From Gammaproteobacteria bacterium (GTDB lineage Bacteria > Pseudomonadota > Gammaproteobacteria > Steroidobacterales > Foliamicaceae): 64,000 nt of DNA. The position numbers were made by a program, and so were the translations under genes. Of the stretch, positions 6,965 to 39,819 are shown one piece after another (the first letter of the stretch is position 1; each line of letters opens with the position of its first letter). The stretch lies in the NCBI GenBank assembly GCA_009844425.1, contig VYBN01000003.1, positions 24,435 to 88,434 of the forward strand. Reading direction: 5' to 3'. A model generated the notes under the pieces. That model searched no databases. It was not told the origin of the DNA and was given only the letters and a program-made list of their open reading frames with translations.

Positions 6965-7438
6965 TTAGTCGTCTTTCGTGCGACCGCGAACGAAAGCCGT
7001 CAAGATACCTGCCAGCACGGTGCTAACAGATGCGCCGGCGACAAAAGGTCGATCCCAAATCGCGCAAATCACAGCAACTATCAAACCCATGATACCGAGC
7101 CCGAATCCCATCCATTGCCCCCTGCGGATGTCCAACTTTTGTGATCTCAAGGCAGTCATTTCCCAGTCCTGGCGATGGAATTGTTCCTTTTCCGCCAATC
7201 GAAGGATGCGCTCCGCCGCTCCGGGCAAAGTTGACTCGTAACCTTCGAGCAGGCTTGGTGGTGGGAGAGGCCCTATGAACGACGCAGCTTCAATGTATGC
7301 CACCCGCGTTCGATCGGGCAGGCTTTCCAGTATCTCCTTGGGCAGGGCCTGGTAAGGCTCTTGCCTGCCTTGGCCTTTGTGCGCGGGGATGCGTGATTTA
7401 GCCGAACGCGCGTGTTTGCTTTTCGTGCGATTTGACAT
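6965..7438 (-). CDS. DUF2335 family membrane protein
   Basis: 157 aa. LPPPSLLEGYESTLPGAAERILRLAEKEQFHRQDWE matches the DUF2335 signature as I remember it. Two C-terminal TM helices. AGGAGG lies 8 nt upstream of the ATG. Confidence 0.7.
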   Translation of the reverse strand: MSNRTKSKHARSAKSRIPAHKGQGRQEPYQALPKEILESLPDRTRVAYIEAASFIGPLPPPSLLEGYESTLPGAAERILRLAEKEQFHRQDWEMTALRSQKLDIRRGQWMGFGLGIMGLIVAVICAIWDRPFVAGASVSTVLAGILTAFVRGRTKDD

Positions 7439-7773
7439 TCCGTTGCCTCCTGACCGCGCGCCACATGTCTCTGCCGATCGCTTCCATATCGTCCCCGTAG
7501 GAACCTGGGTACCTCGTTGGCGAAAAACCTGAGGGATACAAAAGGCCCATTGACGTAATGCCGTCTGTGAAGGCCAACGTGAGCGATCGTGTCCTGATGT
7601 CCCGCTTGTAGCGCATGGCGTGTCCCTGCTTCAGTTGCAGTGAAGCATATCACTTAACGCACGCTCCGAGGCGCCACTTGCATCCGATCGGGGCGCTAGC
7701 TGCCTTGCTCATTTCATGGTATGAATTGATGCTCCCTTTCCCAAACTCAAGCGCGTAGAACGAGAAGCAACGC

Positions 7774-9327
7774 ATGCCGACATTGACGTGGCTCACGCGA
7801 GAACAGGACATCGGCGCGACGAAGCGTGTACCCTATCGTTTGCTCGAAGAGGTTTCAGAGCATTCCGCGGGCGACCGCAGTACCGGCAACATGCTGATAC
7901 AGGGCGACAATCTCGAAGCGTTGAAGGCGCTTCTGCCGTTCTACGCCGGCCGGGTGAAGTGCATCTACATCGATCCTCCGTACAACACGCGATCGGCCTT
8001 CGAGCACTACGACGACAATCTTGAGCACACCAAGTGGCTCGCCATGATGTGGCCACGGCTGGAACTGTTGCGCGAACTGCTGTCGGAGGACGGTTCGATC
8101 TGGGTTTCCATCGACGATAACGAAGCGCACTACCTAAAGGTCGTCATGGACGAGCTATTGGGCCGCAAGTCGTTCGTAGCTGATATTGCTTGGCAGCGTA
8201 CACACACACGAGAAAATCGTACCGATATTTCCAACGTGCATGACAACATCCTTGTGTATGCGAAGAACCGCGATACTTGGCGTTACCTAAGAAATCCGCT
8301 TCCCAAGTCTCAGGAACAACTGCAACGGTTCAAGAATCCAGACGACGATCCTCGTGGAAGATGGTCATCTCTTCCCATTCACGCAAAAGCTGAGAAGGGG
8401 CGTCGAAAGGAACAGTTCTTTACGATTACTCTTCCTTCGGGAAGAAACATTGATCCACCGCCGGGTCGTTGTTGGTTGTACACAGAGGAGAGATTTCGGC
8501 AAATGTGCGCCGACAATCGAATATGGTTCGGAAAGCAGGGCAATAACGCGCCACGGCTCAAGAACTTCTTGTCTGAAGTTCAGAGTGGCTTGGTTCCCTC
8601 AACGTATTGGTCGCACAAAGACGTTGGAACTACCGGTACGGCCAAGAGCGAGGTTGTAAAACTATTCGGAGGCCAGACACCATTCTCAACTCCCAAACCC
8701 GAAGCGCTAATCGAGAGAGTTATTCATATTGCAACCAACCCCGGCGACCTTGTTCTTGATTCTTTTCTCGGTTCTGGAACGACGGTAGCCGTCGCTCACA
8801 AAATGAACAGGCGCTACATCGGTATTGAGATGGGAGATCATGCGATTACGCACTGCGCGCCGCGGCTTCAGAAGGTAATCGACGGGGAACAGGGAGGCAT
8901 TTCCGAGAGCGTCGGTTGGAAAGGTGGCGGCGGATTCCGCTTCTATCGGCTGGGCCCGCCCGCGTTCGACGCGGACGGACGCATACGGCCGGAAATTGGA
9001 TTCCCTGTGCTTGCCGCGCATATCTGGTTCTCCGAAACGGGCGCTCCGTGGGATGGCATCGGCGACTCACCGTTGCTCGGAATTCACGACGGGCGGGCCT
9101 TTGCGCTGCTCTACAACGGAATCCTGGGCGATAAAAGCCCCGGAGGCGGCAACGTGCTGACCCGAGGGACACTCGCCTTGATTCGCAAGGCGTTAACGGA
9201 AGCCTCCCAAGACTTTTACGGGACGCTGACCGTGTATGGTCAGCAATCACGGCTCACTCCTGCAACGCTGGAACGTGAGCGCGTCGCCTTCAAACAGACA
9301 CCCTACGACATTCACTCGCGAACCTGA
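7774..9327 (+). CDS. mod: Type III restriction-modification DNA methyltransferase (Mod)
   Basis: 517 aa. IYIDPPYNT (motif IV) precedes DSFLGSGTT (motif I), the beta-class order. A Res helicase-nuclease gene follows 8 nt downstream. Confidence 0.9.
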   Translation: MPTLTWLTREQDIGATKRVPYRLLEEVSEHSAGDRSTGNMLIQGDNLEALKALLPFYAGRVKCIYIDPPYNTRSAFEHYDDNLEHTKWLAMMWPRLELLRELLSEDGSIWVSIDDNEAHYLKVVMDELLGRKSFVADIAWQRTHTRENRTDISNVHDNILVYAKNRDTWRYLRNPLPKSQEQLQRFKNPDDDPRGRWSSLPIHAKAEKGRRKEQFFTITLPSGRNIDPPPGRCWLYTEERFRQMCADNRIWFGKQGNNAPRLKNFLSEVQSGLVPSTYWSHKDVGTTGTAKSEVVKLFGGQTPFSTPKPEALIERVIHIATNPGDLVLDSFLGSGTTVAVAHKMNRRYIGIEMGDHAITHCAPRLQKVIDGEQGGISESVGWKGGGGFRFYRLGPPAFDADGRIRPEIGFPVLAAHIWFSETGAPWDGIGDSPLLGIHDGRAFALLYNGILGDKSPGGGNVLTRGTLALIRKALTEASQDFYGTLTVYGQQSRLTPATLERERVAFKQTPYDIHSRT

Positions 9328-9335
9328 GCGGGGCG

Positions 9336-11978
9336 GTGGAACTCAAGCAGTATCAGACCGACACGCTTGGTGCCCTGCGCCATTTTTTCGAGGAATCGCG
9401 GATGGGCGGGCCGAAGAATTCCTACGAGTCCTTCACACAGGAACCGGAACAGGCCGGTCGGCTCGGTCCTTACGGAGGCGCTTACCAGCCGCTGAAAGGA
9501 CTGCCTGAAGTTCCTTATGTTTGCCTGCGTTTGCCGACCGGAGGCGGTAAGACGATCCTGGCGGCGCATGCCGTGAGCATCGTCCGCGATGCCTGGATCG
9601 AGAAGGACTGGCCGATGGCGTTGTGGCTGGTTCCGACCAACACGATTCGCCGCCAGACCGCGGAGGCGCTGAAGAACCACCGTCACGCCTACCGCCGTGT
9701 TCTGGACGAAGCCTTCAGTGGCCGCGTGCGCGTCTTCGACATCGCCGACTTCACGCATATCCGCCCGCACGACATCCGCGAGAATTGCTGCATTGTAGTA
9801 GGCACAATTCAGACGCTTCGCACCCGGAGCACCGAAGGCCGCAAGGTGTATGGCCATAACGAGAACCTGGAGGCGCATTTCTCGAAGCTGGCTGCTCACC
9901 CGCCCGGACTTGAGGAGGCGCCCAACGGTGGTCCGAAGTTCTCTTTCGCCAACCTGATGCATCTCCAACGCCCGCTGATGATCGTGGACGAGGCGCATAA
10001 CGCCGTGACGGGCCTGACCCGCGAAATGCAGGCGCGGGTCAACCCCTGCGCCATCGTCGAGTTCACCGCAACGCCCCGCACCCATTCCAACATCCTGCAT
10101 AGCGTCACGGCCAGCGAACTGAAAACCGAGGAGATGGTTAAGCTGCCGGTGATGCTCTCCGAGTACGACACATGGCAAAACGCGGTGAACGGCGCCGTCG
10201 CTGCGCGCATGTCGCTGGCCGAAACGGCCGCAGACGATCCCGATCACATCCGGCCGATTGTCCTGTTCCAGGCTCAGAAAAAGAACGGCGAAGTGCCGGC
10301 CGCGGCGCTCAAGCGGCACCTGATTGAAGTCGAGCAGATTCCCGAAGACCGAATTGCCATCGCGACGGGCGACCAAAGGGGATTGGATGGCATCGATCTG
10401 TTCGATCCCGACTGTCCCATCGAGCACGTCATCACAGTAGAGGCGCTAAAGGAGGGCTGGGACTGCTCGTTCGCCTACGTTTTTTGTTCCGTGTCGCGCA
10501 TACAGAGCGCGAAGGATGCTGAACAACTGCTTGGCCGCGTACTAAGGATGCCTTATGCCAAGCGGCGAAAGACGGACGCATTGAACCGGGCTTACGCCCA
10601 TCTGTCCGAGCCTTCGTTCGGCGCGGCGGCGAAGGCGCTGGTGGACAAGCTGATCGCCATGGGATTCGACGAAGAGGAGGCGCGCGAAAGCATCGAGCGC
10701 ATGCAAGCCGAGACCGATGATGCGGATAACGATTTATTTTCTCGGCGCAACGAAATCCTGCCGGTTTTCACTTACGCGCTTCCCGAAGGCCGGGGGCTGG
10801 TCTCACAGCTTGAGGCGCTGGACGGTCTCCTGGTGCGTGATGCCGATGACGGCGGAGTTGAAATCCGCATTCGGGGCCATTTGGACGCGAAAACGGAACG
10901 AGCAATTGCGGAACTGCTGCCGACCCGGGAACGCAAGGCGCTCACGAAGGCGGCCGCAGCCTATCGAAGCACGACTGATACCGTGCTGTCTCCGGCACAA
11001 CGGGGCGAGAGTTTTGCTCTGCCGCGCCTTATGGCCGAGGTGCAAGGTGTCATTGAATTTGCCGACACCGACATTCTTATGGAGAGCCACGACTGGTCGC
11101 TTCGCAATCACCCATGGAGACCGGGAGAGGGCGAGTTCAATGTTCGGGAAACATCCCGCAGTTTTGAGATTGATCTCGACGGGAACCGCATCGCCTACCA
11201 GTTCGCGTCGGAGGAAGAGCAGTTGGCCCTGGACGTAGAAGTCGAAGGCTGGACGCCGGAGGCGCTTGTGCTGTGGCTCGATCGCCATGTGAGACAGCCG
11301 GACATTGGCCAGAGCGACCTGGTGGGCTGGCTGAGCAGCTTGGTGAACCACCTGGCCGTGTCGCGTGGAATGCCCATTGCCGCTCTCATGCGCTGCAAGT
11401 TCATTCTGGCCCGCAGCGTGCGCGACAGGCTCGCCGCGATAAGGACGATTGAACGCAAATGTGTCTATCAACGGCATCTGTTTGAGCCGGGCGCCAAGCC
11501 GGAAATCTCGTTCGATCACGCTTTTTCTTTCAAGGATGGGATGTATCGGGGCCAGCAACGCTATCGAGGACGCTGGAAGCCGCTCAAGCACTTTCTCGGC
11601 CCCGACTGCGTTCCGGATTTTGATGGCGCCGAAGGCGGTGAAGAGTTTCGGTGCGCGCAGGAAATCGACCGCTTACCGGGCCTGAAGTTCTGGCTGAGAA
11701 ACGTTGCGAGGCACCGAGATTCTTTCTGGCTGCCCACGGCGGCGGGCAGGTTTTATCCAGATTTCGTGGCGATGCTTGAGGATGGCCGGCTGCTGGTAGT
11801 GGAATATAAGGGTGGTCACATTGCTGAAAGCGCAGCCACGGCGGAGAAGCGCAACGTGGGTGCGCTTTGGGAACGCGAGAGCAATGGCAAGTGCGTGTTC
11901 GTGATGGCCGAAAAATCGGTCAACGGGGAGGATGCCCGGTCGCAAATCCTTGCCAAACTGGCGCCGCGATCGATCTGA
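9336..11978 (+). CDS. res: Type III restriction endonuclease Res subunit (DEAD/DEAH helicase plus PD-(D/E)xK nuclease)
   Basis: 880 aa with a GTG start. Contains Walker A (LPTGGGKT), MIVDEAHN (DEAH box) and a C-terminal nuclease-like YPDFVAMLEDGRLLVVEYKG. Confidence 0.9.
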   Translation: MELKQYQTDTLGALRHFFEESRMGGPKNSYESFTQEPEQAGRLGPYGGAYQPLKGLPEVPYVCLRLPTGGGKTILAAHAVSIVRDAWIEKDWPMALWLVPTNTIRRQTAEALKNHRHAYRRVLDEAFSGRVRVFDIADFTHIRPHDIRENCCIVVGTIQTLRTRSTEGRKVYGHNENLEAHFSKLAAHPPGLEEAPNGGPKFSFANLMHLQRPLMIVDEAHNAVTGLTREMQARVNPCAIVEFTATPRTHSNILHSVTASELKTEEMVKLPVMLSEYDTWQNAVNGAVAARMSLAETAADDPDHIRPIVLFQAQKKNGEVPAAALKRHLIEVEQIPEDRIAIATGDQRGLDGIDLFDPDCPIEHVITVEALKEGWDCSFAYVFCSVSRIQSAKDAEQLLGRVLRMPYAKRRKTDALNRAYAHLSEPSFGAAAKALVDKLIAMGFDEEEARESIERMQAETDDADNDLFSRRNEILPVFTYALPEGRGLVSQLEALDGLLVRDADDGGVEIRIRGHLDAKTERAIAELLPTRERKALTKAAAAYRSTTDTVLSPAQRGESFALPRLMAEVQGVIEFADTDILMESHDWSLRNHPWRPGEGEFNVRETSRSFEIDLDGNRIAYQFASEEEQLALDVEVEGWTPEALVLWLDRHVRQPDIGQSDLVGWLSSLVNHLAVSRGMPIAALMRCKFILARSVRDRLAAIRTIERKCVYQRHLFEPGAKPEISFDHAFSFKDGMYRGQQRYRGRWKPLKHFLGPDCVPDFDGAEGGEEFRCAQEIDRLPGLKFWLRNVARHRDSFWLPTAAGRFYPDFVAMLEDGRLLVVEYKGGHIAESAATAEKRNVGALWERESNGKCVFVMAEKSVNGEDARSQILAKLAPRSI

Positions 11979-12017
11979 GGACCTTTCCTGCCAAGTAACA
12001 GCGCTCGCAAAACGGCA

Positions 12018-12051
12018 TTGCCGTGATATGGTGGAATCCCTATAATCCACC
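12018..12051 (+). promoter_or_regulatory. putative sigma70 promoter with inverted-repeat operator for higBA
   Basis: TTGCCG (12018-12023), a 17-nt spacer, then TATAAT (12041-12046). The arms GGTGGA (12030-12035) and TCCACC (12046-12051) bracket the -10 box. Confidence 0.4.
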
Positions 12052-12063
12052 GCTATAGGTACC

Positions 12064-12420
12064 TTGTTGAAACCCCTCCGATGGGTCGGTTCGAGCAAGG
12101 GGGATCTGAGGCGGTTTCCCGATGCCGTGCAAGACTGCATGGGCTTTGCGATCTACCAAGCACAGATCGGCCTTCGGCACCGCGATGCCAAGCTGCTCAA
12201 GGGCTTTGGTCCGGGCATCCTTGAGGTCGCGGCGCGCCACGACGGAGACACCTACAGGGCGATCTACACCGTGCGGTTCCAAGCTGCGGTATATGTGCTG
12301 CACGCCTTTCAGAAGAAGGCGAAGCGGGGCATCGCCACGCCGAAGAAGGAACTCGACCTCGTCCGGCAGAGGCTGCGCATAGCCGACAGGGATCACCGCG
12401 GCATACAAGGCAGAGGATAA
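12064..12420 (+). CDS. higB: RelE/ParE-superfamily toxin, HigB / Gp49-like
   Basis: About 118 aa with a TTG start at 12064 or 12067. KPLRWVGSSKGDLRRFP ... VYVLHAFQKK is typical of HigB/DUF891 toxins. An XRE antitoxin gene follows. Confidence 0.8.
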   Translation: MLKPLRWVGSSKGDLRRFPDAVQDCMGFAIYQAQIGLRHRDAKLLKGFGPGILEVAARHDGDTYRAIYTVRFQAAVYVLHAFQKKAKRGIATPKKELDLVRQRLRIADRDHRGIQGRG

Positions 12421-12424
12421 GAAC

Positions 12425-12763
12425 ATGACAACATCCGACTCGAACGTGGAACCAGGTAGCGGCAACGTGTTTGCAGACCTCGGTCACCCGGGGGCCGAGG
12501 CTCACCTGCTGAAGGCTGAGCTCGTCGCCCGCATTGATGGCCTCGTGCGGCAGCGCGGCATAACCCAGTCCGAGGCCGCACGCCTTCTCGGCCTTGCCCA
12601 GCCCGATGTATCACGGCTGTTGCGCGGCGACTTCCGCGAATACTCTCTGGAGCGCCTGTTCCGTTTGCTGACCGCTCTCGGCCGCGATATCGACATCGTG
12701 ATCCGCCCGCCGCGCTCGACTGACGGAGGCAGGCTGCGCATCGCGGCTGCCGACACAGGCTGA
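12425..12763 (+). CDS. higA: XRE-family helix-turn-helix antitoxin (HigA-like)
   Basis: 112 aa. GNVFADLG ... ITQSEAARLLGLAQPDVSRLLRG ... FSLERL is the common HigA-type pattern. Starts 4 nt after the toxin gene ends. Confidence 0.8.
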   Translation: MTTSDSNVEPGSGNVFADLGHPGAEAHLLKAELVARIDGLVRQRGITQSEAARLLGLAQPDVSRLLRGDFREYSLERLFRLLTALGRDIDIVIRPPRSTDGGRLRIAAADTG

Positions 12764-12779
12764 TCCAGCTCGATGCGTG

Positions 12780-13748
12780 TCAGTCGGAGTCCATGGGCGT
12801 TTCGCCGTCCACGACGCGGCGGGCCGGGCCGGCTATCAGGGCGTCGGGGCCGCGGACGACTTCGCGGTCCTTGTCGGGATAAGGCAGCTTCATCAGGAAG
12901 TGCTGCAGGGCGGCGACACGGGCGCGCTTTTTGTCGTCGGACTTGATAACCGTCCAGGGCGCATCGGCGGTGTCTGTATAGAAGAACATCGCCTCCTTCG
13001 CTTCCGTGTAGTCTTCCCACTTGTCCAGCGATGCAAGATCGATCGGCGAGATTTTCCACTGTTTCAGCGGGTCGGTCCGGCGGCTGTCGAACCGGTGCGC
13101 CTGCTCCTCCTGGGAGACGGAAAAGTAGTACTTGAAAAGATGAATGCCGCTGTTCACCAGCATGCGCTCCAGGTTCGGACACTGGCGCATGAATTCGAGG
13201 TATTCCGCCCGGGTGCAGAAGCCCATCACCCGCTCCACGCCGGCGCGGTTGTACCAGGAACGGTCGAACAGCACGATTTCGCCTTCAGCGGGGAGATGCT
13301 GGATATAGCGCTGGAAATACCATTGGCCGCGCTCCCGGTCGTTGGGCTTTTCCAGGGCCACGACGCGCGCGCCGCGCGGATTCAAGTGCTCCATGAAGCG
13401 CTTTATCGTTCCGCCTTTGCCGGCGGCGTCGCGTCCTTCGCACAGAACCAGCACCTTTGCGCCCGATTCCTTGACCCAACGTTGAGCCTTGAGCAGTTCG
13501 ACCTGCAGCGAGGCTTTGTGCGCCTCGTATTCCTTGCGCCGCATCTTGTCGGTATAGGGATAGACGCCCTCTTGGAATACGCGCTTTATGGCGTCGGCGG
13601 AGTGGGGAGCGCTCGGGAGACCGAGGTCCGCCTGCGCCGCGGGCGCTTTTTCCTCCGTGGCGTTCGGCTGCTGTGCGCGCAGCTGCTCGCCTGTCCCGCG
13701 AGCGGCCTGATCGCTCCCGTTGCCCTCTATGCCGGCCTCCCGGTTCAT
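12780..13748 (-). CDS. ppk2: polyphosphate kinase 2
   Basis: LCEGRDAAGKGG (Walker A) and FDRSWYNRAGVERVMGF are PPK2 hallmarks. ATG at 13748; the track ORF starts 6 nt upstream at a GTG. Confidence 0.9.
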   Translation of the reverse strand: MNREAGIEGNGSDQAARGTGEQLRAQQPNATEEKAPAAQADLGLPSAPHSADAIKRVFQEGVYPYTDKMRRKEYEAHKASLQVELLKAQRWVKESGAKVLVLCEGRDAAGKGGTIKRFMEHLNPRGARVVALEKPNDRERGQWYFQRYIQHLPAEGEIVLFDRSWYNRAGVERVMGFCTRAEYLEFMRQCPNLERMLVNSGIHLFKYYFSVSQEEQAHRFDSRRTDPLKQWKISPIDLASLDKWEDYTEAKEAMFFYTDTADAPWTVIKSDDKKRARVAALQHFLMKLPYPDKDREVVRGPDALIAGPARRVVDGETPMDSD

Positions 13749-13833
13749 GACCACCCCCCGATCAGTACGGTCGCCCGATTATAGAAGACCGTGCGCCAAC
13801 CTCTGCGAGTACCGTTGGGGTACGATTCAGTGT

Positions 13834-15066
13834 ATGCGAACTGGGAGTGAGGCAAGACAAGTGAACGGGTTCTCCAGCAGGTTCCGCGCGTTGTTGCTGA
13901 GCACGGCGCTGCTTGCGGTGCACGCTTGGGCCCAGCCGAGCCTGGATGATTTCCGCTCCCCGGAAGCTCCGTGCCATGACCGCAGCCGCGGTCCGCAGAC
14001 CGCGGTTGTCGATACCCACGTGCACTTCCGACCGTTCGGCGGGCCCGCCGTTTCCTTTGAAGACATGGTTGATTTTCTGGATCGATCAGGGGTTCGGTTC
14101 GCCAACGTGTACGGCATCGGGCAGATGCTGCCGGTGGGCTCGCCTTGCACCTACTACCTCGATTGTCCAGGCGAGCCGGTGCTGCCCACGCTCAAGAACG
14201 ATTTCGTGAATGCGGCCAACTTCGCTTCGGCCCGGCCCGAAAACGTGCACCTGACCCTGTCCATGACCTTTCCCGATCTGGCGCGTCCCGAGTCGGTGCT
14301 CGCCCGAATGGAGCTGCTCGACCGGGAGTTTCCAGGCGTGTTCGGCTGGATGGGGGAGGTCAACCTGGTGAAGCAGGCTTTGTTCGCGAATGCACACCGG
14401 GCGGTCCCGCTTGAAGCGATCGCCGCCTGGGCGCCCTTCATGAAGAGGCTGCGGGAACGCAACATTCCATTTGCGGTCCATTCGGACCTGGGCCGCGATG
14501 GCCAGCCCTTGCATTACCTGCCCTGGATTGAGGAGGTGCTCAGGCTGTACCCACACAATCCGATCGTGTGGATGCACCTGGGCCTGTCGCGCGAACTGAC
14601 CCGAATCAACCCGGGTGTGCATCTCGGAGTGCTGCGCCGGCTGCTCGATCGCTATCCCGCGCTGATGGTGGACATTTCCTGGCGGGTCATCCACGACAAC
14701 GTCTTTTCGCGGCCCGAATTACGGGCCGCCTATCTGCCGTTCATCGAAGAGTATTCCGCCCGAATCCTCCCCGGTTCGGATTTTCTGGCCTCGGCGGACA
14801 AGAATTTCGATGTCTATTCGGAGGAACTGCGTGTTACCAGCGAAATCCTGGCCGACCTGAGCGACGAGGCATTCCGCAATATCGCGCTGGGTGAAAACTA
14901 CTTCCGCCTCCTCGGGCTCGGCTACAGCGCGCCCGAAATCTGCCCGGCTGGTCCGTCCTCATCGGCGCAGCCGGAAACTTCGGATGCGAAGGCTTCCCGG
15001 CTTCCGTCCGTGAACGAGGGCGTCTCACCTTCGCGGGGGGCGGGACGCCCCCCCTCCCAGGGCTAG
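13834..15066 (+). CDS. secreted amidohydrolase-family protein
   Basis: ATG at 13834 and a signal-like segment FRALLLSTALLAVHAWAQ. VVDTHVHF is a metal-binding motif of the amidohydrolase_2 type. The C-terminal tail is low-complexity. Confidence 0.7.
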   Translation: MRTGSEARQVNGFSSRFRALLLSTALLAVHAWAQPSLDDFRSPEAPCHDRSRGPQTAVVDTHVHFRPFGGPAVSFEDMVDFLDRSGVRFANVYGIGQMLPVGSPCTYYLDCPGEPVLPTLKNDFVNAANFASARPENVHLTLSMTFPDLARPESVLARMELLDREFPGVFGWMGEVNLVKQALFANAHRAVPLEAIAAWAPFMKRLRERNIPFAVHSDLGRDGQPLHYLPWIEEVLRLYPHNPIVWMHLGLSRELTRINPGVHLGVLRRLLDRYPALMVDISWRVIHDNVFSRPELRAAYLPFIEEYSARILPGSDFLASADKNFDVYSEELRVTSEILADLSDEAFRNIALGENYFRLLGLGYSAPEICPAGPSSSAQPETSDAKASRLPSVNEGVSPSRGAGRPPSQG

Positions 15067-34475: not shown

Positions 34476-35216
34476 CTACCGCAGCGTAACCAGCACTTCG
34501 TTGCGGCGCAGCGGCGGGATCGTCCAGGGCGGGTTGTAGCCCGCTACCCGCCAATCGCCCTCGTGCTCCAGGCCGCGCTCATCCAGCCAGACGGCCAGCT
34601 TCGTGCGATGCTCTTCGGCAATTCTGTCGCGCCATAAGCCGCCAAAACGGGCGCTGGCCACCCGGCGCGGCGCCACGTCGCGAATTTTCACCATTGGGTT
34701 TGTTGGCGTGGGCGCCGTCTCCTTCGTGTAGCCCTCGGGCAGAACGAAAGCCATCGACCAGCTGCGGATATCGTCGCCTGCCAGTGTTGAGCTGCTCGCC
34801 GCGTCCGAATCTTCGGCGGGGCTCAGGAGCACCGGCGCGGTCATGGCGATTTTCTCGCCGCACGGCTGTAGTTCCACCGGCGCGGTCATCTTGATTTTCC
34901 GCTTGCCTTCATTGGCGCCGGAGATATATCGCACCAGCCAACGGAAGCCAACCCGGCTGGCGGAATCGAAATCACGCGGCACCATCGTTTCCGCGACGGC
35001 ATACCCGTCATAGTCGCGAATCTGAAAATCGCCGTCCTCAACAACAACACGAAAGGCCGGCTCTTCCGCCGCCTTTCCCCCAAAGGCGGAACACGCCGCC
35101 ATTGACATCGCCGTCGCAACGCCGATCACTCCGGCCGCAATGGATTTGCGCGGTCTCCCGGCCGCTCGTCGCAATTTGTTTACGGAATAGATTTGATCAG
35201 GGCTTGAAGTTTTCAT
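34476..35216 (-). CDS. SOUL heme-binding-family lipoprotein
   Basis: ATG at 35216 after GAGGA. Lipobox-like AMSMAAC. FRWLVRYISGANEGKRKIKMTAPV is typical of the SOUL/HBP family. Confidence 0.75.
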   Translation of the reverse strand: MKTSSPDQIYSVNKLRRAAGRPRKSIAAGVIGVATAMSMAACSAFGGKAAEEPAFRVVVEDGDFQIRDYDGYAVAETMVPRDFDSASRVGFRWLVRYISGANEGKRKIKMTAPVELQPCGEKIAMTAPVLLSPAEDSDAASSSTLAGDDIRSWSMAFVLPEGYTKETAPTPTNPMVKIRDVAPRRVASARFGGLWRDRIAEEHRTKLAVWLDERGLEHEGDWRVAGYNPPWTIPPLRRNEVLVTLR

Positions 35217-35305
35217 AGTCAAATCCTCAACCTCGCCCCCAATTCCCTACAAGAAATATACGCTTGTTTCCCGCGCCCGGATTCAAGCGGATCAGGTCAT
35301 CTTAT

Positions 35306-35335
35306 TTGTGACCATGGTCGTGACCATAGTATTAT
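35306..35335 (+). promoter_or_regulatory. putative promoter/operator of the Phd-VapC toxin-antitoxin operon
   Basis: TTGTGA, an 18-nt spacer, then TATTAT. GTGACCAT is directly repeated (35308-35315 and 35319-35326). The palindrome ATGGTC-gt-GACCAT spans 35314-35327. Confidence 0.4.
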
Positions 35336-35365
35336 CAGGCCATCCGTCGAAACCAGAACTTGGTT

Positions 35366-35650
35366 ATGGACACAAGCACGACAAAGGTGGCCGGTCAGGC
35401 CAGGACGATCAAGGCGTCCGAGTTCAAGGCGAAGTGCCTCAAGCTGATGGACGAGGTCGCCGAAAGCGGCGAAGAGATCGTAATCACCAAAAACGGCCTG
35501 CCGGTCTCGCGGCTCACGCCATATCGCCGCAAATCGCAGATGACTTTCGGCCGCAATCGGGACAATATTCGAATCTTGGGCGACATCGTCGAGCCCATGC
35601 CCGCTGAATGGTTCGAGGATACTGACCATTCCGGGGAAGCTCTTTTTTGA
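35366..35650 (+). CDS. Phd/YefM-family antitoxin
   Basis: About 94 aa. IKASEFKAKCLKLMDEVAESGEEIVITKNGLPVSRL is the prevent-host-death pattern. Its stop overlaps the toxin start (TTGA). Confidence 0.8.
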   Translation: MDTSTTKVAGQARTIKASEFKAKCLKLMDEVAESGEEIVITKNGLPVSRLTPYRRKSQMTFGRNRDNIRILGDIVEPMPAEWFEDTDHSGEALF

Positions 35651-36045
35651 TAGTCCTCGACACGCACGTACTGCTTTGGTATGAGCGCGGCGACCGAAGG
35701 CTGGGTGCAAAAGCCCGCCGCGAGATAGAAGGCGCGTTTCGGCAGCGCGACGCGGCGGTGTCTTCCATATCGTTCTGGGAAATCGGCATGCGAATCCAGA
35801 AGGGCCGGCTTGAGTTTCTCTTTGACCTGGACGCATGGCGCCGCGAACTTATGGGCCAGGGATTGAACGAGATTCCCGTGGATGGAGCCATCGCCGCGTG
35901 CGCAGGCCTGCTCGCCGAAATGCATGGCGACCCCGCCGACCGTCTGATTGTCGCCACCGCCCTGCAGGGCCATCAACTGCTCACGGCAGACCGCCGCATT
36001 CTGAATTGGCCCCGGAAGCTAAGCCGCATGGACGCCAGCGATTAG
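35647..36045 (+). CDS. vapC: PIN-domain toxin VapC
   Basis: 132 aa with a TTG start. IVLDTHVLLW, ISFWEI and DPADRLIVATA supply the acidic PIN residues. Confidence 0.8.
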   Translation: MIVLDTHVLLWYERGDRRLGAKARREIEGAFRQRDAAVSSISFWEIGMRIQKGRLEFLFDLDAWRRELMGQGLNEIPVDGAIAACAGLLAEMHGDPADRLIVATALQGHQLLTADRRILNWPRKLSRMDASD

Positions 36046-36087
36046 TTCCGCTGCAATGTCCCCAGTACGTGTCCAGGCCAAATCACT

Positions 36088-37059
36088 CTATTGGTCGAGT
36101 TTGGCCAGCCGTTCGATGAAGCGCTTCTTGCGGTGATGCCGGGTTCGCAGGCCCTTCAGGCGATTGAAAAATTCAGCCTGATCGTTGTCCTTTTCGGCCA
36201 GCGCATGCAAATCGAAAATCAGCTGTGCCGCACGGTCGTAGCTCGTATACGTGCGCTTCTCGGCCAAGGCTTCGATTTCCAGCCATGTTTCCGGCTCGCG
36301 CCCGCGAAGCTGATTGAGCCGGGAATTGCGCATTTTTTCGTCGAAGCGCTCCCGCTCCCGCCGCTCTTTTTCTCTCCGTTCGGCTGCCTCAGCGTGACGC
36401 GCCATCCTGATCGCTTCCACCCGCGCCCACAATTCGCCCACAGGCCGAAGTTGGTCAGGCGTTTGTTTTTCCGCGCTTTCCTTGATTAGCCTGATGAGTT
36501 CTGCCGCAACATGCGGGTCGGACTCGGCGACCCGCTGAAGCAGGCGTGTCTTCTCCGCATGCGGGATCGCCTCCAGGGCGGCTTGCATGGCGTTGCCGGA
36601 TCGCGTTTCCGCTGTCGGGATATCAGGCATCTCCGCCGCAGCGCACAAGAGATCACCATCGATTTGAAAGAATTCGGCCAGGGCCTCCAGGCCGCCGGTG
36701 AGCGGGCCAATGCCCGGCAGCGGCTCTGTATTGCTTTCCGCGATGCGTCCGTGTTCCACTTCCCAGAGCCAAAGTACGTATGCGAGCCGCATATCACCGG
36801 ACAACAGATCTCTCCGCAGCGGCGCCAATACGCCCATCCAGCCTTTGCCGTCGTCCCAATCCTCGTAATTCCTCGGCTCAAATTCGCAGAAGATATCGAG
36901 AATGAGGTTGTCCCTCGATTCGATGGCTTCCACAATTTTCGTGCCGCCCAGTACTCTTTCCAGTTCCGCGCGATTCACGAGTCGCTTCGGTAGCCGGATC
37001 ATCAAGTGCCGATAGGTCCCGCCCACCCCCACATACAGGTCGAACCAGCGCTTCATCAT
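36088..37059 (-). CDS. hypothetical protein with a Lys/Arg/Glu-rich coiled-coil C-terminal half (downstream part of a TAG-interrupted reading frame)
   Basis: 323-aa ORF with no family recognised by me. It is in frame with a 47-codon ORF just upstream, separated by one TAG and five sense codons. Confidence 0.7.
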   Translation of the reverse strand: MMKRWFDLYVGVGGTYRHLMIRLPKRLVNRAELERVLGGTKIVEAIESRDNLILDIFCEFEPRNYEDWDDGKGWMGVLAPLRRDLLSGDMRLAYVLWLWEVEHGRIAESNTEPLPGIGPLTGGLEALAEFFQIDGDLLCAAAEMPDIPTAETRSGNAMQAALEAIPHAEKTRLLQRVAESDPHVAAELIRLIKESAEKQTPDQLRPVGELWARVEAIRMARHAEAAERREKERRERERFDEKMRNSRLNQLRGREPETWLEIEALAEKRTYTSYDRAAQLIFDLHALAEKDNDQAEFFNRLKGLRTRHHRKKRFIERLAKLDQ

Positions 37060-37074
37060 CTCGAGAGGTTTGCC

Positions 37075-37218
37075 CTAGAAATAGCCCCAGTCATAGTGAA
37101 CCGAGAAGCCTGCAGAGGTAATGCGCGCCCGCGACGACAACTTGTGCAATGATTTCCTAGCGCTTTCGTCCAGCGGCTGATCTACCGCCTGAAACTCGTA
37201 ATACTCGTATTCATCCAT
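37075..37218 (-). CDS. 47-codon ORF (MDEYEYYEFQAVDQPLDESARKSLHKLSSRARITSAGFSVHYDWGYF), probable N-terminus of the 36088..37059 gene
   Basis: ATG at 37218 and TAG at 37075-37077. The same frame continues GKPLE-MMKRW... into the 323-aa ORF. Too short to appear in the ORF track. Confidence 0.45.
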   Translation of the reverse strand: MDEYEYYEFQAVDQPLDESARKSLHKLSSRARITSAGFSVHYDWGYF

Positions 37219-37306
37219 CTCTAGTTTCGTTCACTTGCGCCACCGAAGACAGTGCTGCTAGATGCAAATCTGGTTTGACGGCAAAAATTGGGGACTGATA
37301 TCGATT

Positions 37307-38572
37307 CTAGGCGGAGCGGGCTACGTTCAGGGCATGCCACCGTAGTGCTTCCCGATTGGGACGATGTTGCGCGCACGCGGGCTTCCTGAGCCGCCGCCCT
37401 CGAAATTGTCGCAGCCAGTGGTTGCGTGGGTTGGTATCAACTTCTTCGGCCAAGCCAACACGGAGGTCATCGTCGATCCAAAGCATTCCATGGTCGAATG
37501 CCCAATGAATCGTGCGGTTCAGCGCAAGTCCGTTATAGACCACATCTCTGCCGCCACGGGACACCGGTATGATGTGTGCCGCCTCAACCTCGAAGTGGCA
37601 TCCGGTTTCCATCCCTTGTGTGTGTGCAATTCCCAACCCAGATATAGCGCATCGAGAATCGTATGCGCCCAACACCGCAGTACGAAACATGTCGGACCGG
37701 ATCTTCATTCGGCGTTCCGTGGTTCCTCTGGTGCCCAACTTCTCAAGAAGGTCATTCAAATGCCGGGCGACCGATTGGCTATCTGGCAGCGCGCCAATTT
37801 TCCTCATCCCATCGAACGGTTGGAGTGACGGTTCCTGCCCAACTTCCCCGTTATTCAACCACGCTGAAAAATGTTCAGGGAGTAGCGCAATAATCGTGTC
37901 GGCTGAAAGGCTCGAAAGCTCAAAACAATCGGGCAGGTTGTTGAGGAATCTGCAGTAGGCGCGCAGTCCGTTTTCGTCATTGGAATAACCGCGTCTGGGG
38001 CCCCCCGCTTTGGGGTGTCCGTAAAGTCGGCTCGCCGCGATCAGCGCACCCGGGCTGGCCATTACCCGCATACGTTCGCCGAGGTGAGTAGCCGCGATCC
38101 CGTGTACCGGCAAGGCGTAAGACAGGAGGAGGTCCAACTCACCATTGGGGCCGCCGCTGTAACGGCGCAGCAACATGTAGGGGCCACGCAGAAGATGGCG
38201 GTGGCGTCTCCGCGCGTCGGGGTTTTCGAGCAAGTGCCGTCCGTCGGCACCCGGCTTTCGTACTCCGGCACGGCTTGCCGGGCACACGGCATCGAAGTAG
38301 TAGAGTGAAAGCCATTCCCACATGCCGTCTTCGTCGGCATCCGCTGTAACGCCGCCTTCCACGAACCGCCCATCGATGTACTCCGCGAACTCCCTTCGGC
38401 TTGCAAAGCTTCGCGGTTCGACAGCTATATTGCCGAGTACGCACGGAGCCGAGTGCACTGCGTCGGTCAGGAGCGCAACCGGCGGCGGCAAACTGCCGTT
38501 GCGTCTCAAGCGCGCCAGATATCGGCCAAACTCGCCAATGCCGCTGGCGGTCAAGATCCTGACCGTCTGCAT
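37307..38572 (-). CDS. HNH_2-type nuclease with an unrecognised ~290-aa N-terminal domain
   Basis: 421 aa. C-terminal CAISGLG...EAAHIIPVSRGG...NGLALNRTIHWAFDHGMLWID matches the HNH_2 (COG3440-like restriction endonuclease) pattern. The N-terminal domain is unknown to me. Confidence 0.75.
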   Translation of the reverse strand: MQTVRILTASGIGEFGRYLARLRRNGSLPPPVALLTDAVHSAPCVLGNIAVEPRSFASRREFAEYIDGRFVEGGVTADADEDGMWEWLSLYYFDAVCPASRAGVRKPGADGRHLLENPDARRRHRHLLRGPYMLLRRYSGGPNGELDLLLSYALPVHGIAATHLGERMRVMASPGALIAASRLYGHPKAGGPRRGYSNDENGLRAYCRFLNNLPDCFELSSLSADTIIALLPEHFSAWLNNGEVGQEPSLQPFDGMRKIGALPDSQSVARHLNDLLEKLGTRGTTERRMKIRSDMFRTAVLGAYDSRCAISGLGIAHTQGMETGCHFEVEAAHIIPVSRGGRDVVYNGLALNRTIHWAFDHGMLWIDDDLRVGLAEEVDTNPRNHWLRQFRGRRLRKPACAQHRPNREALRWHALNVARSA

Positions 38573-38592
38573 CTGTTCAATCGTCCGTTTCC

Positions 38593-39804
38593 CTACCAGT
38601 GCCAGAGGGTGCCGTCCTCCAGGCGGTTGACCGGTAGCGAAGCCGGGCGGTAGGGATACTTCGCTGCGAGCTTTTCATTGATATCCACGCCGTGGCCGGG
38701 CGCCTCGCCCGGATGCAGGTAGCCGTCCTCGAAGCGCCAGGCGCGGGGGAAAACGGCGTCGGTTTCGTCGGTGTGGCGCATGTATTCCTGGATGCCGAAG
38801 TTCGGCACCGACAGGTCGAAGTGCAGCGCGGCGCCCATGCTGACCGGGGAGAGGTCGGTGGCGCCGTGGCAGCCGGTGCGCACCTGGTGGAGCGCCGCGA
38901 GCGCGGCGATCTGGCGCAGGTGGGTGATGCCGCCGGCGTGGGGGACGGTGCAGCGGATGTAGTCGATCAACTGGTTCTCGATCAGGTCCTTGCAGTCCCA
39001 GATGGTGTTGAAGACTTCACCCGCCGCCAGCGGCGTGGTCGTGTGCGAGCGGATCAGCCGGAAGGACTCCTGGTTCTCGGCCGGCGTTGGGTCCTCCATC
39101 CAGAACAGTGCATACGGTTCCAGCGCCTTGCCCAGTCGGCCGGCCTCGATGGGCGTCAGGCGGTGATGCACGTCGTGCAGCAGGTGCGGCGTGAAGCCGT
39201 ATTCCTCGCGCAGGGCGGCGAACAGCTCGGGCACGGAGTTGAGGTATTTCTCCGACGACCAGACGTTCTCCTCCGGGAGCGCCGACGAGGCCGGTTCGTA
39301 ATACATTCGGTCCTTGCTTACGCCGTAGGTTCCCGCCAGCCCGGGTACGCCGCACTGGGCGCGCACGGCCTTGTAGCCGAGTTCCAGGTAGCGGCCCACT
39401 TCAGCCACGGTGTCGGCAACGGTCTCACCGTTGGCGTGGCCGTAGCAGAGCACACCGTCGCGGCTTCGCCCGCCCAGCAACTGGTAGAGCGGCATCCCGG
39501 CCGCCTTGGCCTTGATGTCCCAGAGCGCGGTGTCCACCGCGCCGATCGCGGTCATCGTGACCGGCCCCCGGCGCCAGTATGCGCCCCGATACAGGTACTG
39601 CCAGGTGTCCTCGATGCGGTCGGCCTCGCGCCCGATCAGAGTGGGGATCACGTGGTCGTTCAGATAGCTGACGACGGCCATTTCCCGCCCGTTGAGCGTG
39701 GCGTCGCCGAGGCCGTGGACGCCATCGTCCGTGACGATCTTCAGCGTAACGAAATTGCGCCCCGGACAGGTCACGATCACGCGCGCTTCGGCGATCCGGG
39801 GCAT
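38593..39804 (-). CDS. manD: enolase-superfamily D-mannonate/D-galactonate dehydratase family protein
   Basis: ATG at 39804. [33 protein letters not shown] and [15 protein letters not shown] are typical of the ManD subgroup. Confidence 0.8.
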
Positions 39805-39819
39805 TAGCGGGAACACGCC

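Follow-up and report, generated by a model that had tools for sequence, protein, structure and literature searches.

Two neighbouring genes on the minus strand of a bacterial contig raise the question of whether they work together as one defence system or only share an address. They lie in a stretch of 64,000 nucleotides from a Gammaproteobacteria bacterium (contig VYBN01000003.1), and this whole stretch is called the window here. The upstream gene encodes an HNH_2 nuclease that carries a separate N-terminal domain (N-domain), and the downstream gene encodes a coiled-coil protein. The original prediction, made from the letters of the window, had proposed that the two form a defence or addiction pair. 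In this study, we found that the HNH and coiled-coil genes are neighbours by history, not partners. With a probability of about 0.62, we read the locus as a solitary, single-chain, Type IV-like HNH nuclease in a variable islet, to which the coiled-coil gene is unrelated. Positions of the two genes and of the protein regions, in amino acids (aa), are as follows.

37307-38572, minus strand: HNH_2 nuclease gene of 421 aa, composed of the N-domain, a variable helical linker and the HNH_2 domain (open reading frame (ORF) listing and translation)
37853..38572, minus strand: N-domain, aa 1-240 of the HNH protein, uncharacterised
37310..37651, minus strand: HNH_2 (beta-beta-alpha-Me) nuclease region, aa 308-421, with the Pfam core at aa 308-367
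36088-37218, minus strand: coiled-coil gene of 376 codons, with an in-frame TAG at codon 48 (37075-37077)

The linkage of the two families was determined in both directions. A scan with the HNH-family alignment against one genome per GTDB species gave 23 loci with the full HNH architecture, all in metagenome-assembled genomes (MAGs) labelled Pseudomonadales, Gammaproteobacteria or Dehalococcoidia. No member of the coiled-coil family was found within ±8 kb of these loci (0/23; tblastn with five family members as queries). From the other side, 87 coiled-coil loci were available (80 metagenome loci and 7 others); one of them (L127) held a domain of HNH_2 type, encoded on the other strand, and none held the N-domain (0/87). 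Among 400 genomes sampled evenly across the class, both families were never present in one genome, the window's own excepted. The two genes were adjacent in the population of the window (L147 and L148) and in the relative L046, and nowhere else in the survey. The original prediction had itself named lack of linkage elsewhere as the outcome that would refute a pair, and the co-occurrence check found the families unlinked elsewhere. Together with the occurrence of each gene alone at the same genomic site, described below, these results largely refute a two-gene defence or addiction system.

Neighbour clustering gave no conserved partner for the HNH gene, with no neighbour family common to more than 5 of 25 loci. 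A Pfam tally of the 140 proteins flanking HNH genes returned housekeeping families (sulfatase, TauD, COX, LpxB etc.), each in no more than 4, and no methyltransferase family was among the families common to at least 2 of these 140 neighbours.

The two genes occupy an interval between manD and a SOUL gene, together with a toxin-antitoxin (TA) pair.

35223..38592, no strand: variable islet between manD and SOUL (blastn and tblastn synteny breaks, gene tables)
38593-39816, minus strand: manD, ManD-type enolase (Pfam)
35360..36045, plus strand: phd/vapC pair, PhdYeFM antitoxin and PIN toxin with overlapping stop and start (Pfam)
35360-35650, plus strand: Phd (Pfam)
35647-36045, plus strand: PIN/VapC (Pfam)
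34476-35222, minus strand: SOUL (Pfam)

The HNH start lies 20 nt from the manD stop, and a spacer of 88 nt separates the HNH gene from the coiled-coil ATG at 37218. The coiled-coil frame begins MDEYEYYEFQAVDQPL and finishes at 36088 with RHHRKKRFIERLAKLDQ. The GC content was 0.595 for the HNH gene and 0.58 for the coiled-coil gene, whereas it was 0.67 for manD and 0.68 for PfkB; at third codon positions (GC3), the values were 0.65 and 0.69, compared with 0.89 and 0.82 for the same two flanking genes. ORF calls, translation and Pfam confirmed the ORFs, spacings and neighbours described in the original prediction, and the GC and GC3 figures agreed with its statement that both genes are AT-richer than their flanks.

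In close relatives, KARI-Aldedh-ManD and SOUL-PfkB were kept as the two flanks, and the interval between them differed in content.

L014: ManD-HNH-SOUL
L047/48/49: ManD-HNH-array of 12 tRNA genes-SOUL
L046: ManD-HNH in two frames-coiled-coil gene truncated at 286 aa-7 tRNA genes-SOUL
L050: ManD-intact coiled-coil gene-C5 methylase-Type II restriction endonuclease (REase)-Vsr-DDE transposase of an insertion sequence (IS)-SOUL, with HNH absent
L147/L148: same gene order as the window

In the blastn comparison with L050, the alignment jumped from window position 38590 to 37219, so that exactly the HNH cassette was missing. In the comparison with L014, it jumped from 37324 to 35285, and the coiled-coil gene and vapBC were missing. 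The phd/vapC pair was confined to the population of the window (L147 and L148) and was absent from L014, L046, L047 and L050. A complete Type II restriction-modification (R-M) system and the DDE transposase directly followed the intact coiled-coil gene in L050 (9307-13390), and the REase matched PADLOC PDLC03501 (E 1e-132). The HNH frameshift in L046 may be an error, since the contig resembles a long-read assembly. Since the breaks were clean and either gene was found alone at the manD-SOUL site, these results indicate that the HNH and coiled-coil genes are independent cassettes in a variable islet. We propose that in this gammaproteobacterial lineage the manD-SOUL interval is a small islet in which unrelated cassettes are gained and lost one by one, and that the window holds three of them, the solitary HNH_2 nuclease, the coiled-coil gene and phd/vapC.

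This islet resembles the accessory islets found at hot spots between core genes in its conserved manD and SOUL flanks, its atypical composition and its varying content (nuclease, vapBC, Type II R-M with Vsr, IS and tRNA arrays). It differs from them in its very small size, about 0.4-5.8 kb, and in that no integrase, att repeats or tRNA target was seen in the window. The tRNA arrays were located at 9818-11039 in L047 and 9818-10884 in L048 (12 genes each) and at 10763-11454 in L046 (7 genes); their spacers were mostly 1-17 nt, with one longer gap per array. No tRNA gene was found in the 64-kb window. They may be accessory tRNA arrays that occupy the place taken by vapBC in the window; PIN toxins frequently cleave tRNA. 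A haem-binding SOUL gene adjoined the HNH gene in four lineages, in differing orientations (L022, L024 at about 7040-7830; L014 at 9452-10420), which is probably residual synteny and not function.

The nuclease part of the HNH protein was identified by several profile searches. Pfam HNH_2 (PF13391) matched aa 308-367 with an E-value of 8.7e-10. In PADLOC, the C-terminus matched PDLC04132 (E 5e-16) and PDLC03546 at the domain level only, and neither the HNH nor the coiled-coil protein gave a full-length component match to the known anti-phage systems of PADLOC-DB v2. NCBIfam NF045808 (PT-DNA_restrict) aligned only at positions 155-282 of its 284, that is, over the C-terminal 128 positions that make up the HNH part; the score was 81.5 bits, below the cut-off of 180, and the sulfur-binding domain part stayed unaligned. 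A sequence search of the PDB with HNH family profiles returned only TagI (6ghs, E 5e-4) and, weakly, VcaM4I (6yex), both to the HNH part. The residues C308, H333, N347 and H356 were invariant in 22 family members, and the C-terminal HNH_2 domain with its invariant His/Asn/His would be predicted to cut DNA.

The HNH gene is under purifying selection, with a ratio of nonsynonymous to synonymous substitution rates (dN/dS) of about 0.15. Pairwise values against four relatives were 0.12-0.17; by part, they were 0.12-0.13 in the N-domain and 0.14-0.20 in the HNH region, and constraint was relaxed only in the linker (aa 246-290). We read the gene as functional because of this low dN/dS and the invariant catalytic residues. 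Its dS (0.98-1.6) exceeded that of the neighbouring manD gene (0.33-0.62) two- to threefold when the same pairs of genomes were compared. Such an elevated dS suggests older, recombined or exchanged alleles, or a weak constraint on codon usage. The family comprises about 90 full-length homologue clusters with 41-76% identity. Searches of 50,697 phage records and 72,556 plasmid records matched the HNH_2 domain only and gave no full-length relative.

TagI (SRA-HNH), VcaM4I (EVE-HNH) and ScoMcrA/SprMcrA (SBD-HNH) are modification-dependent Type IV enzymes, and in TagI, VcaM4I and ScoMcrA the reader domains direct target recognition. The window's HNH protein shares with TagI, VcaM4I and ScoMcrA the arrangement on one polypeptide, in which a helical linker joins a non-catalytic domain at the N-terminus to an HNH_2 domain at the C-terminus. 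The catalytic His/Asn/His are likewise conserved, the HNH part aligns, and the gene is solitary, with no adjacent methyltransferase. The N-domain differs from theirs in that it is not SRA, EVE, SBD or another known reader, and the window's host has C5 methyltransferases of its own. Most probably, the HNH protein works by itself as a single-chain nuclease of the restriction type, in which the C-terminal HNH_2 domain would serve as the cutter, and the conserved 240-aa N-domain may supply target recognition or licensing, as its place in the architecture suggests. The part of the original prediction that described a defence-type HNH protein stands, with an uncharacterised N-domain fused to HNH_2, modification-dependent enzymes as the nearest relatives of the HNH part and an atypical islet beside vapBC as its setting; the paired system does not.

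The N-domain itself proved to be conserved and uncharacterised. Pfam, NCBIfam and PADLOC gave no match to aa 1-290 of this protein, in agreement with the original prediction, which had found nothing familiar in this region. Within the HNH family, the N-domain showed the conserved motifs GMWEWLSL-YFD--CP, RHLLRGPY and LLP--F. An AlphaFold2 (AF2) model of the HNH protein, built from 22 sequences, had a mean predicted local distance difference test (pLDDT) score of 76. Over the N-domain (aa 1-240), pLDDT was mostly 80-97 but fell to 72-76 at aa 111-130, and the predicted fold was made up largely of helices, with a small sheet at the N-terminus. Foldseek of this model against the PDB and BFVD left the N-domain without a match and aligned only the HNH part, with best E-values of 0.07-0.2. 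No recognised modified-base reader (SRA, EVE/PUA-like, SBD or McrA-N) was found in the HNH protein by sequence libraries or Foldseek.

Searched exhaustively with phmmer, aa 1-290 matched 906 representative clusters. The matches were mostly stand-alone proteins of 235-260 aa, and HNH fusions were a small minority. The stand-alone proteins of about 240 aa matched window aa 1-240 with E-values of 1e-20 to 1e-35 and 30-38% identity, and the whole N-domain family had in common the motifs G-W-WL--YFD--CP, YRHLL-GP, KRG and LLP-EF. The genomic context was determined for eight independent examples (L051, L136, L138/139, L140/141, L144, L145 and L146). In 8/8, the ~240-aa gene came last in a run of three genes that overlap (~630/~255/~240 aa), and C5 DNA methylase and Vsr genes adjoined this operon in all eight; in L146, the first gene of the triple was called at 426 aa and not at ~630. 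The C5 DNA methylase, ~630-aa, ~255-aa, ~240-aa and Vsr genes were all co-directional in L145 (3089-8185), and an MvaI_BcnI or EcoRII-C nuclease was additionally present by the operon in L138 and L140. The ~630-aa protein partially matched the PADLOC candidate PDC-M33A (E 2e-21 to 2e-32), and its N-terminus contained GHKL-like N-box and G1-box motifs (EGIQNSLDA and EDFGTTGLTG), recognised by eye only. Pfam gave no match for the ~630-, ~255- or ~240-aa proteins. This five-gene set may be an unrecognised multi-subunit restriction system.

The operon setting resembles the associations of paraMORC/GHKL proteins with R-M genes, for which C5 methylase, Vsr and HNH_2 have been described as associated families (PMC8011034). 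The Pfam families of that report (HEF_HK and Response_reg_2) were hit by none of the three operon proteins. Beside the L144 operon, a second unannotated triple (645, 272 and 369 aa) was observed at 10354-14212, mirror-imaged across the same C5 methylase/Vsr pair; its 645-aa and 272-aa products were 16-17% identical to their counterparts in the first triple.

Window aa 1-240 is thus homologous to the third operon protein and shares its motifs, and it differs from that protein in being fused to HNH_2 and in lacking both partners and the adjacent C5 methyltransferase and Vsr. These partners and R-M genes were also not found near HNH-family genes at the 25 loci. The fusion looks like a shortcut because the N-domain is homologous to stand-alone proteins of operons linked with C5 methylase and Vsr; it would wire an R-M-associated domain straight to a nuclease. 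The N-domain may then be an undescribed DNA-targeting or licensing fold, common to about a thousand clusters of an unrecognised five-gene restriction system and here fused to HNH, although we hold this wider proposal to be tentative and somewhat doubtful.

The coiled-coil gene belongs to a much larger family, with more than 1371 clusters. Its product had no match in Pfam, NCBIfam or PADLOC and none in the PDB, either by sequence profile or by Foldseek of the AF2 model. The model (pLDDT 88) showed an N-terminal alpha/beta domain (aa 1-112), followed by a helical middle part and then by a long bundle of charged helices. The in-frame TAG reported by the original prediction is present in the window and is not fixed in the population, as L147 and L148, from other assemblies or samples, encode the exact read-through protein of 376 aa intact in the same gene order. 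L148 was 99.93% identical to the window, with 4 mismatches in 5822 bases and the TAG among them; L147 had 59 differences in 8482 bases (99.3%). Codon 48 in relatives was CAG or CAA (Gln) or a Lys codon. The intact allele on near-identical contigs and the sense codons in relatives indicate that the TAG is a very recent strain-level variant or a consensus error. Recoding or read-through of the TAG was rejected in view of the Gln or Lys codons of relatives and the sense codon on a near-identical contig.

The neighbours of the coiled-coil family were tallied in the 80 metagenome loci. No conserved partner was found there, only minority neighbours. A protein of ~800 aa, AEP-TOTE primase-like with a superfamily 2 (SF2) helicase, adjoined the coiled-coil gene in 8 of the 80 (L053, L057, L062, L064, L065, L070, L111 and L130), or in 6 of 41 when the count was restricted to coiled-coil loci flanked by 2.5 kb or more; the orientations were mixed, with a co-directional overlap in two loci. 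DUF3024 proteins were immediate neighbours in 5 further loci. A literature search for the TOTE conflict system was without result. As a separate observation, the helical bundle at the C-terminus (aa 317-374) of the coiled-coil relative P0192 weakly matched the C-terminus of the PADLOC candidate PDC-S62 (E 4e-6), and the window's own coiled-coil protein was below every threshold against PDC-S62.

Other explanations of the locus were weighed against the solitary nuclease. If the HNH and coiled-coil genes made up a paired defence or addiction system, in which the N-domain would act as the sensor and the coiled-coil protein would take the part of partner, regulator or antitoxin, their co-directional arrangement, the 88-nt spacer, the atypical composition that they have in common, the repeated adjacency in L046, L147 and L148 and the presence of vapBC in the same islet would be accounted for. 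This reading is nevertheless very improbable, as the pair does not co-occur beyond a narrow clade in either the locus surveys or the class sample, either gene stands alone at the manD-SOUL site in L014, L047 and L050, and the family sizes are more than tenfold apart. An antitoxin role is further argued against by the window itself, where the coiled-coil gene has a stop and the HNH gene is intact. The HNH gene could instead be a selfish, homing-like mobile nuclease cassette that inserts between housekeeping genes and is not a host defence. The clean presence or absence at the cassette boundary (L050 compared with the window), housekeeping neighbours that are different at each locus, the occurrence (at 41-48% identity) in MAGs of groups as distant as Pseudomonadales and Dehalococcoidia, and the dS in excess of that of manD are all in its favour. 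However, the manD site is kept in relatives whose HNH proteins are 68-78% identical, which looks like vertical inheritance, and both domains of the protein are under strong purifying selection. There were also no flanking repeats, no intein or intron context and no full-length copy in phage or plasmid records, and we regard a selfish origin as unlikely.

A further explanation concerns the N-domain, which could be a protein-docking or regulatory module, so that the HNH fusion would be an effector in need of a trans-acting ATPase complex like the ~630- and ~255-aa proteins. The translational coupling of the N-domain protein to two partners in every stand-alone context is in line with docking, as is an N-domain that, taken as all-helical, matches no nucleic-acid-binding fold. 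On the other hand, the genome of the window (94% complete) contained no homologue of the ~630-aa partner, and no neighbour was conserved across the 25 HNH loci. We consider dependence on such a complex to be improbable, to about the same degree as a selfish origin.

Several observations weigh against the solitary Type IV-like nuclease that we favour. The N-domain showed no detectable likeness to DNA-binding or base-reading folds in PDB, BFVD and profile searches, and AF2 confidence was poor over the HNH core (aa 315-354). The window's genome has two C5 methyltransferases, both on other contigs, and therefore a general activity dependent on 5-methylcytosine would be self-toxic. HNH-family genes were mostly located among housekeeping genes, outside defence islands. 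The GHKL identity of the ~630-aa protein, on which part of the operon comparison draws, was unsupported by Pfam or a PDB profile search. In the window's clade, the adjacent, co-directional pair was present in four assemblies (the window, L046, L147 and L148), and a functional link of the HNH and coiled-coil genes restricted to this clade is possible.

Since the two-gene system does not exist as such, there is no new paired defence system to record here. What the locus offers is an HNH protein with a clean reader-plus-HNH architecture, in which the putative reader is uncharacterised and has a confidently predicted fold with no match in Pfam, PDB or BFVD. The manD-SOUL site is in addition a compact natural case of cassette turnover, in which close relatives carry different combinations of nuclease, TA pair, R-M system, IS and tRNA arrays. 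Through the N-domain, this lone nuclease is connected with a three-gene operon that is widespread, unnamed and linked with C5 methylase and Vsr. The target of the single-chain HNH fusion would be the cheapest and simplest way into the function of the larger N-domain family.

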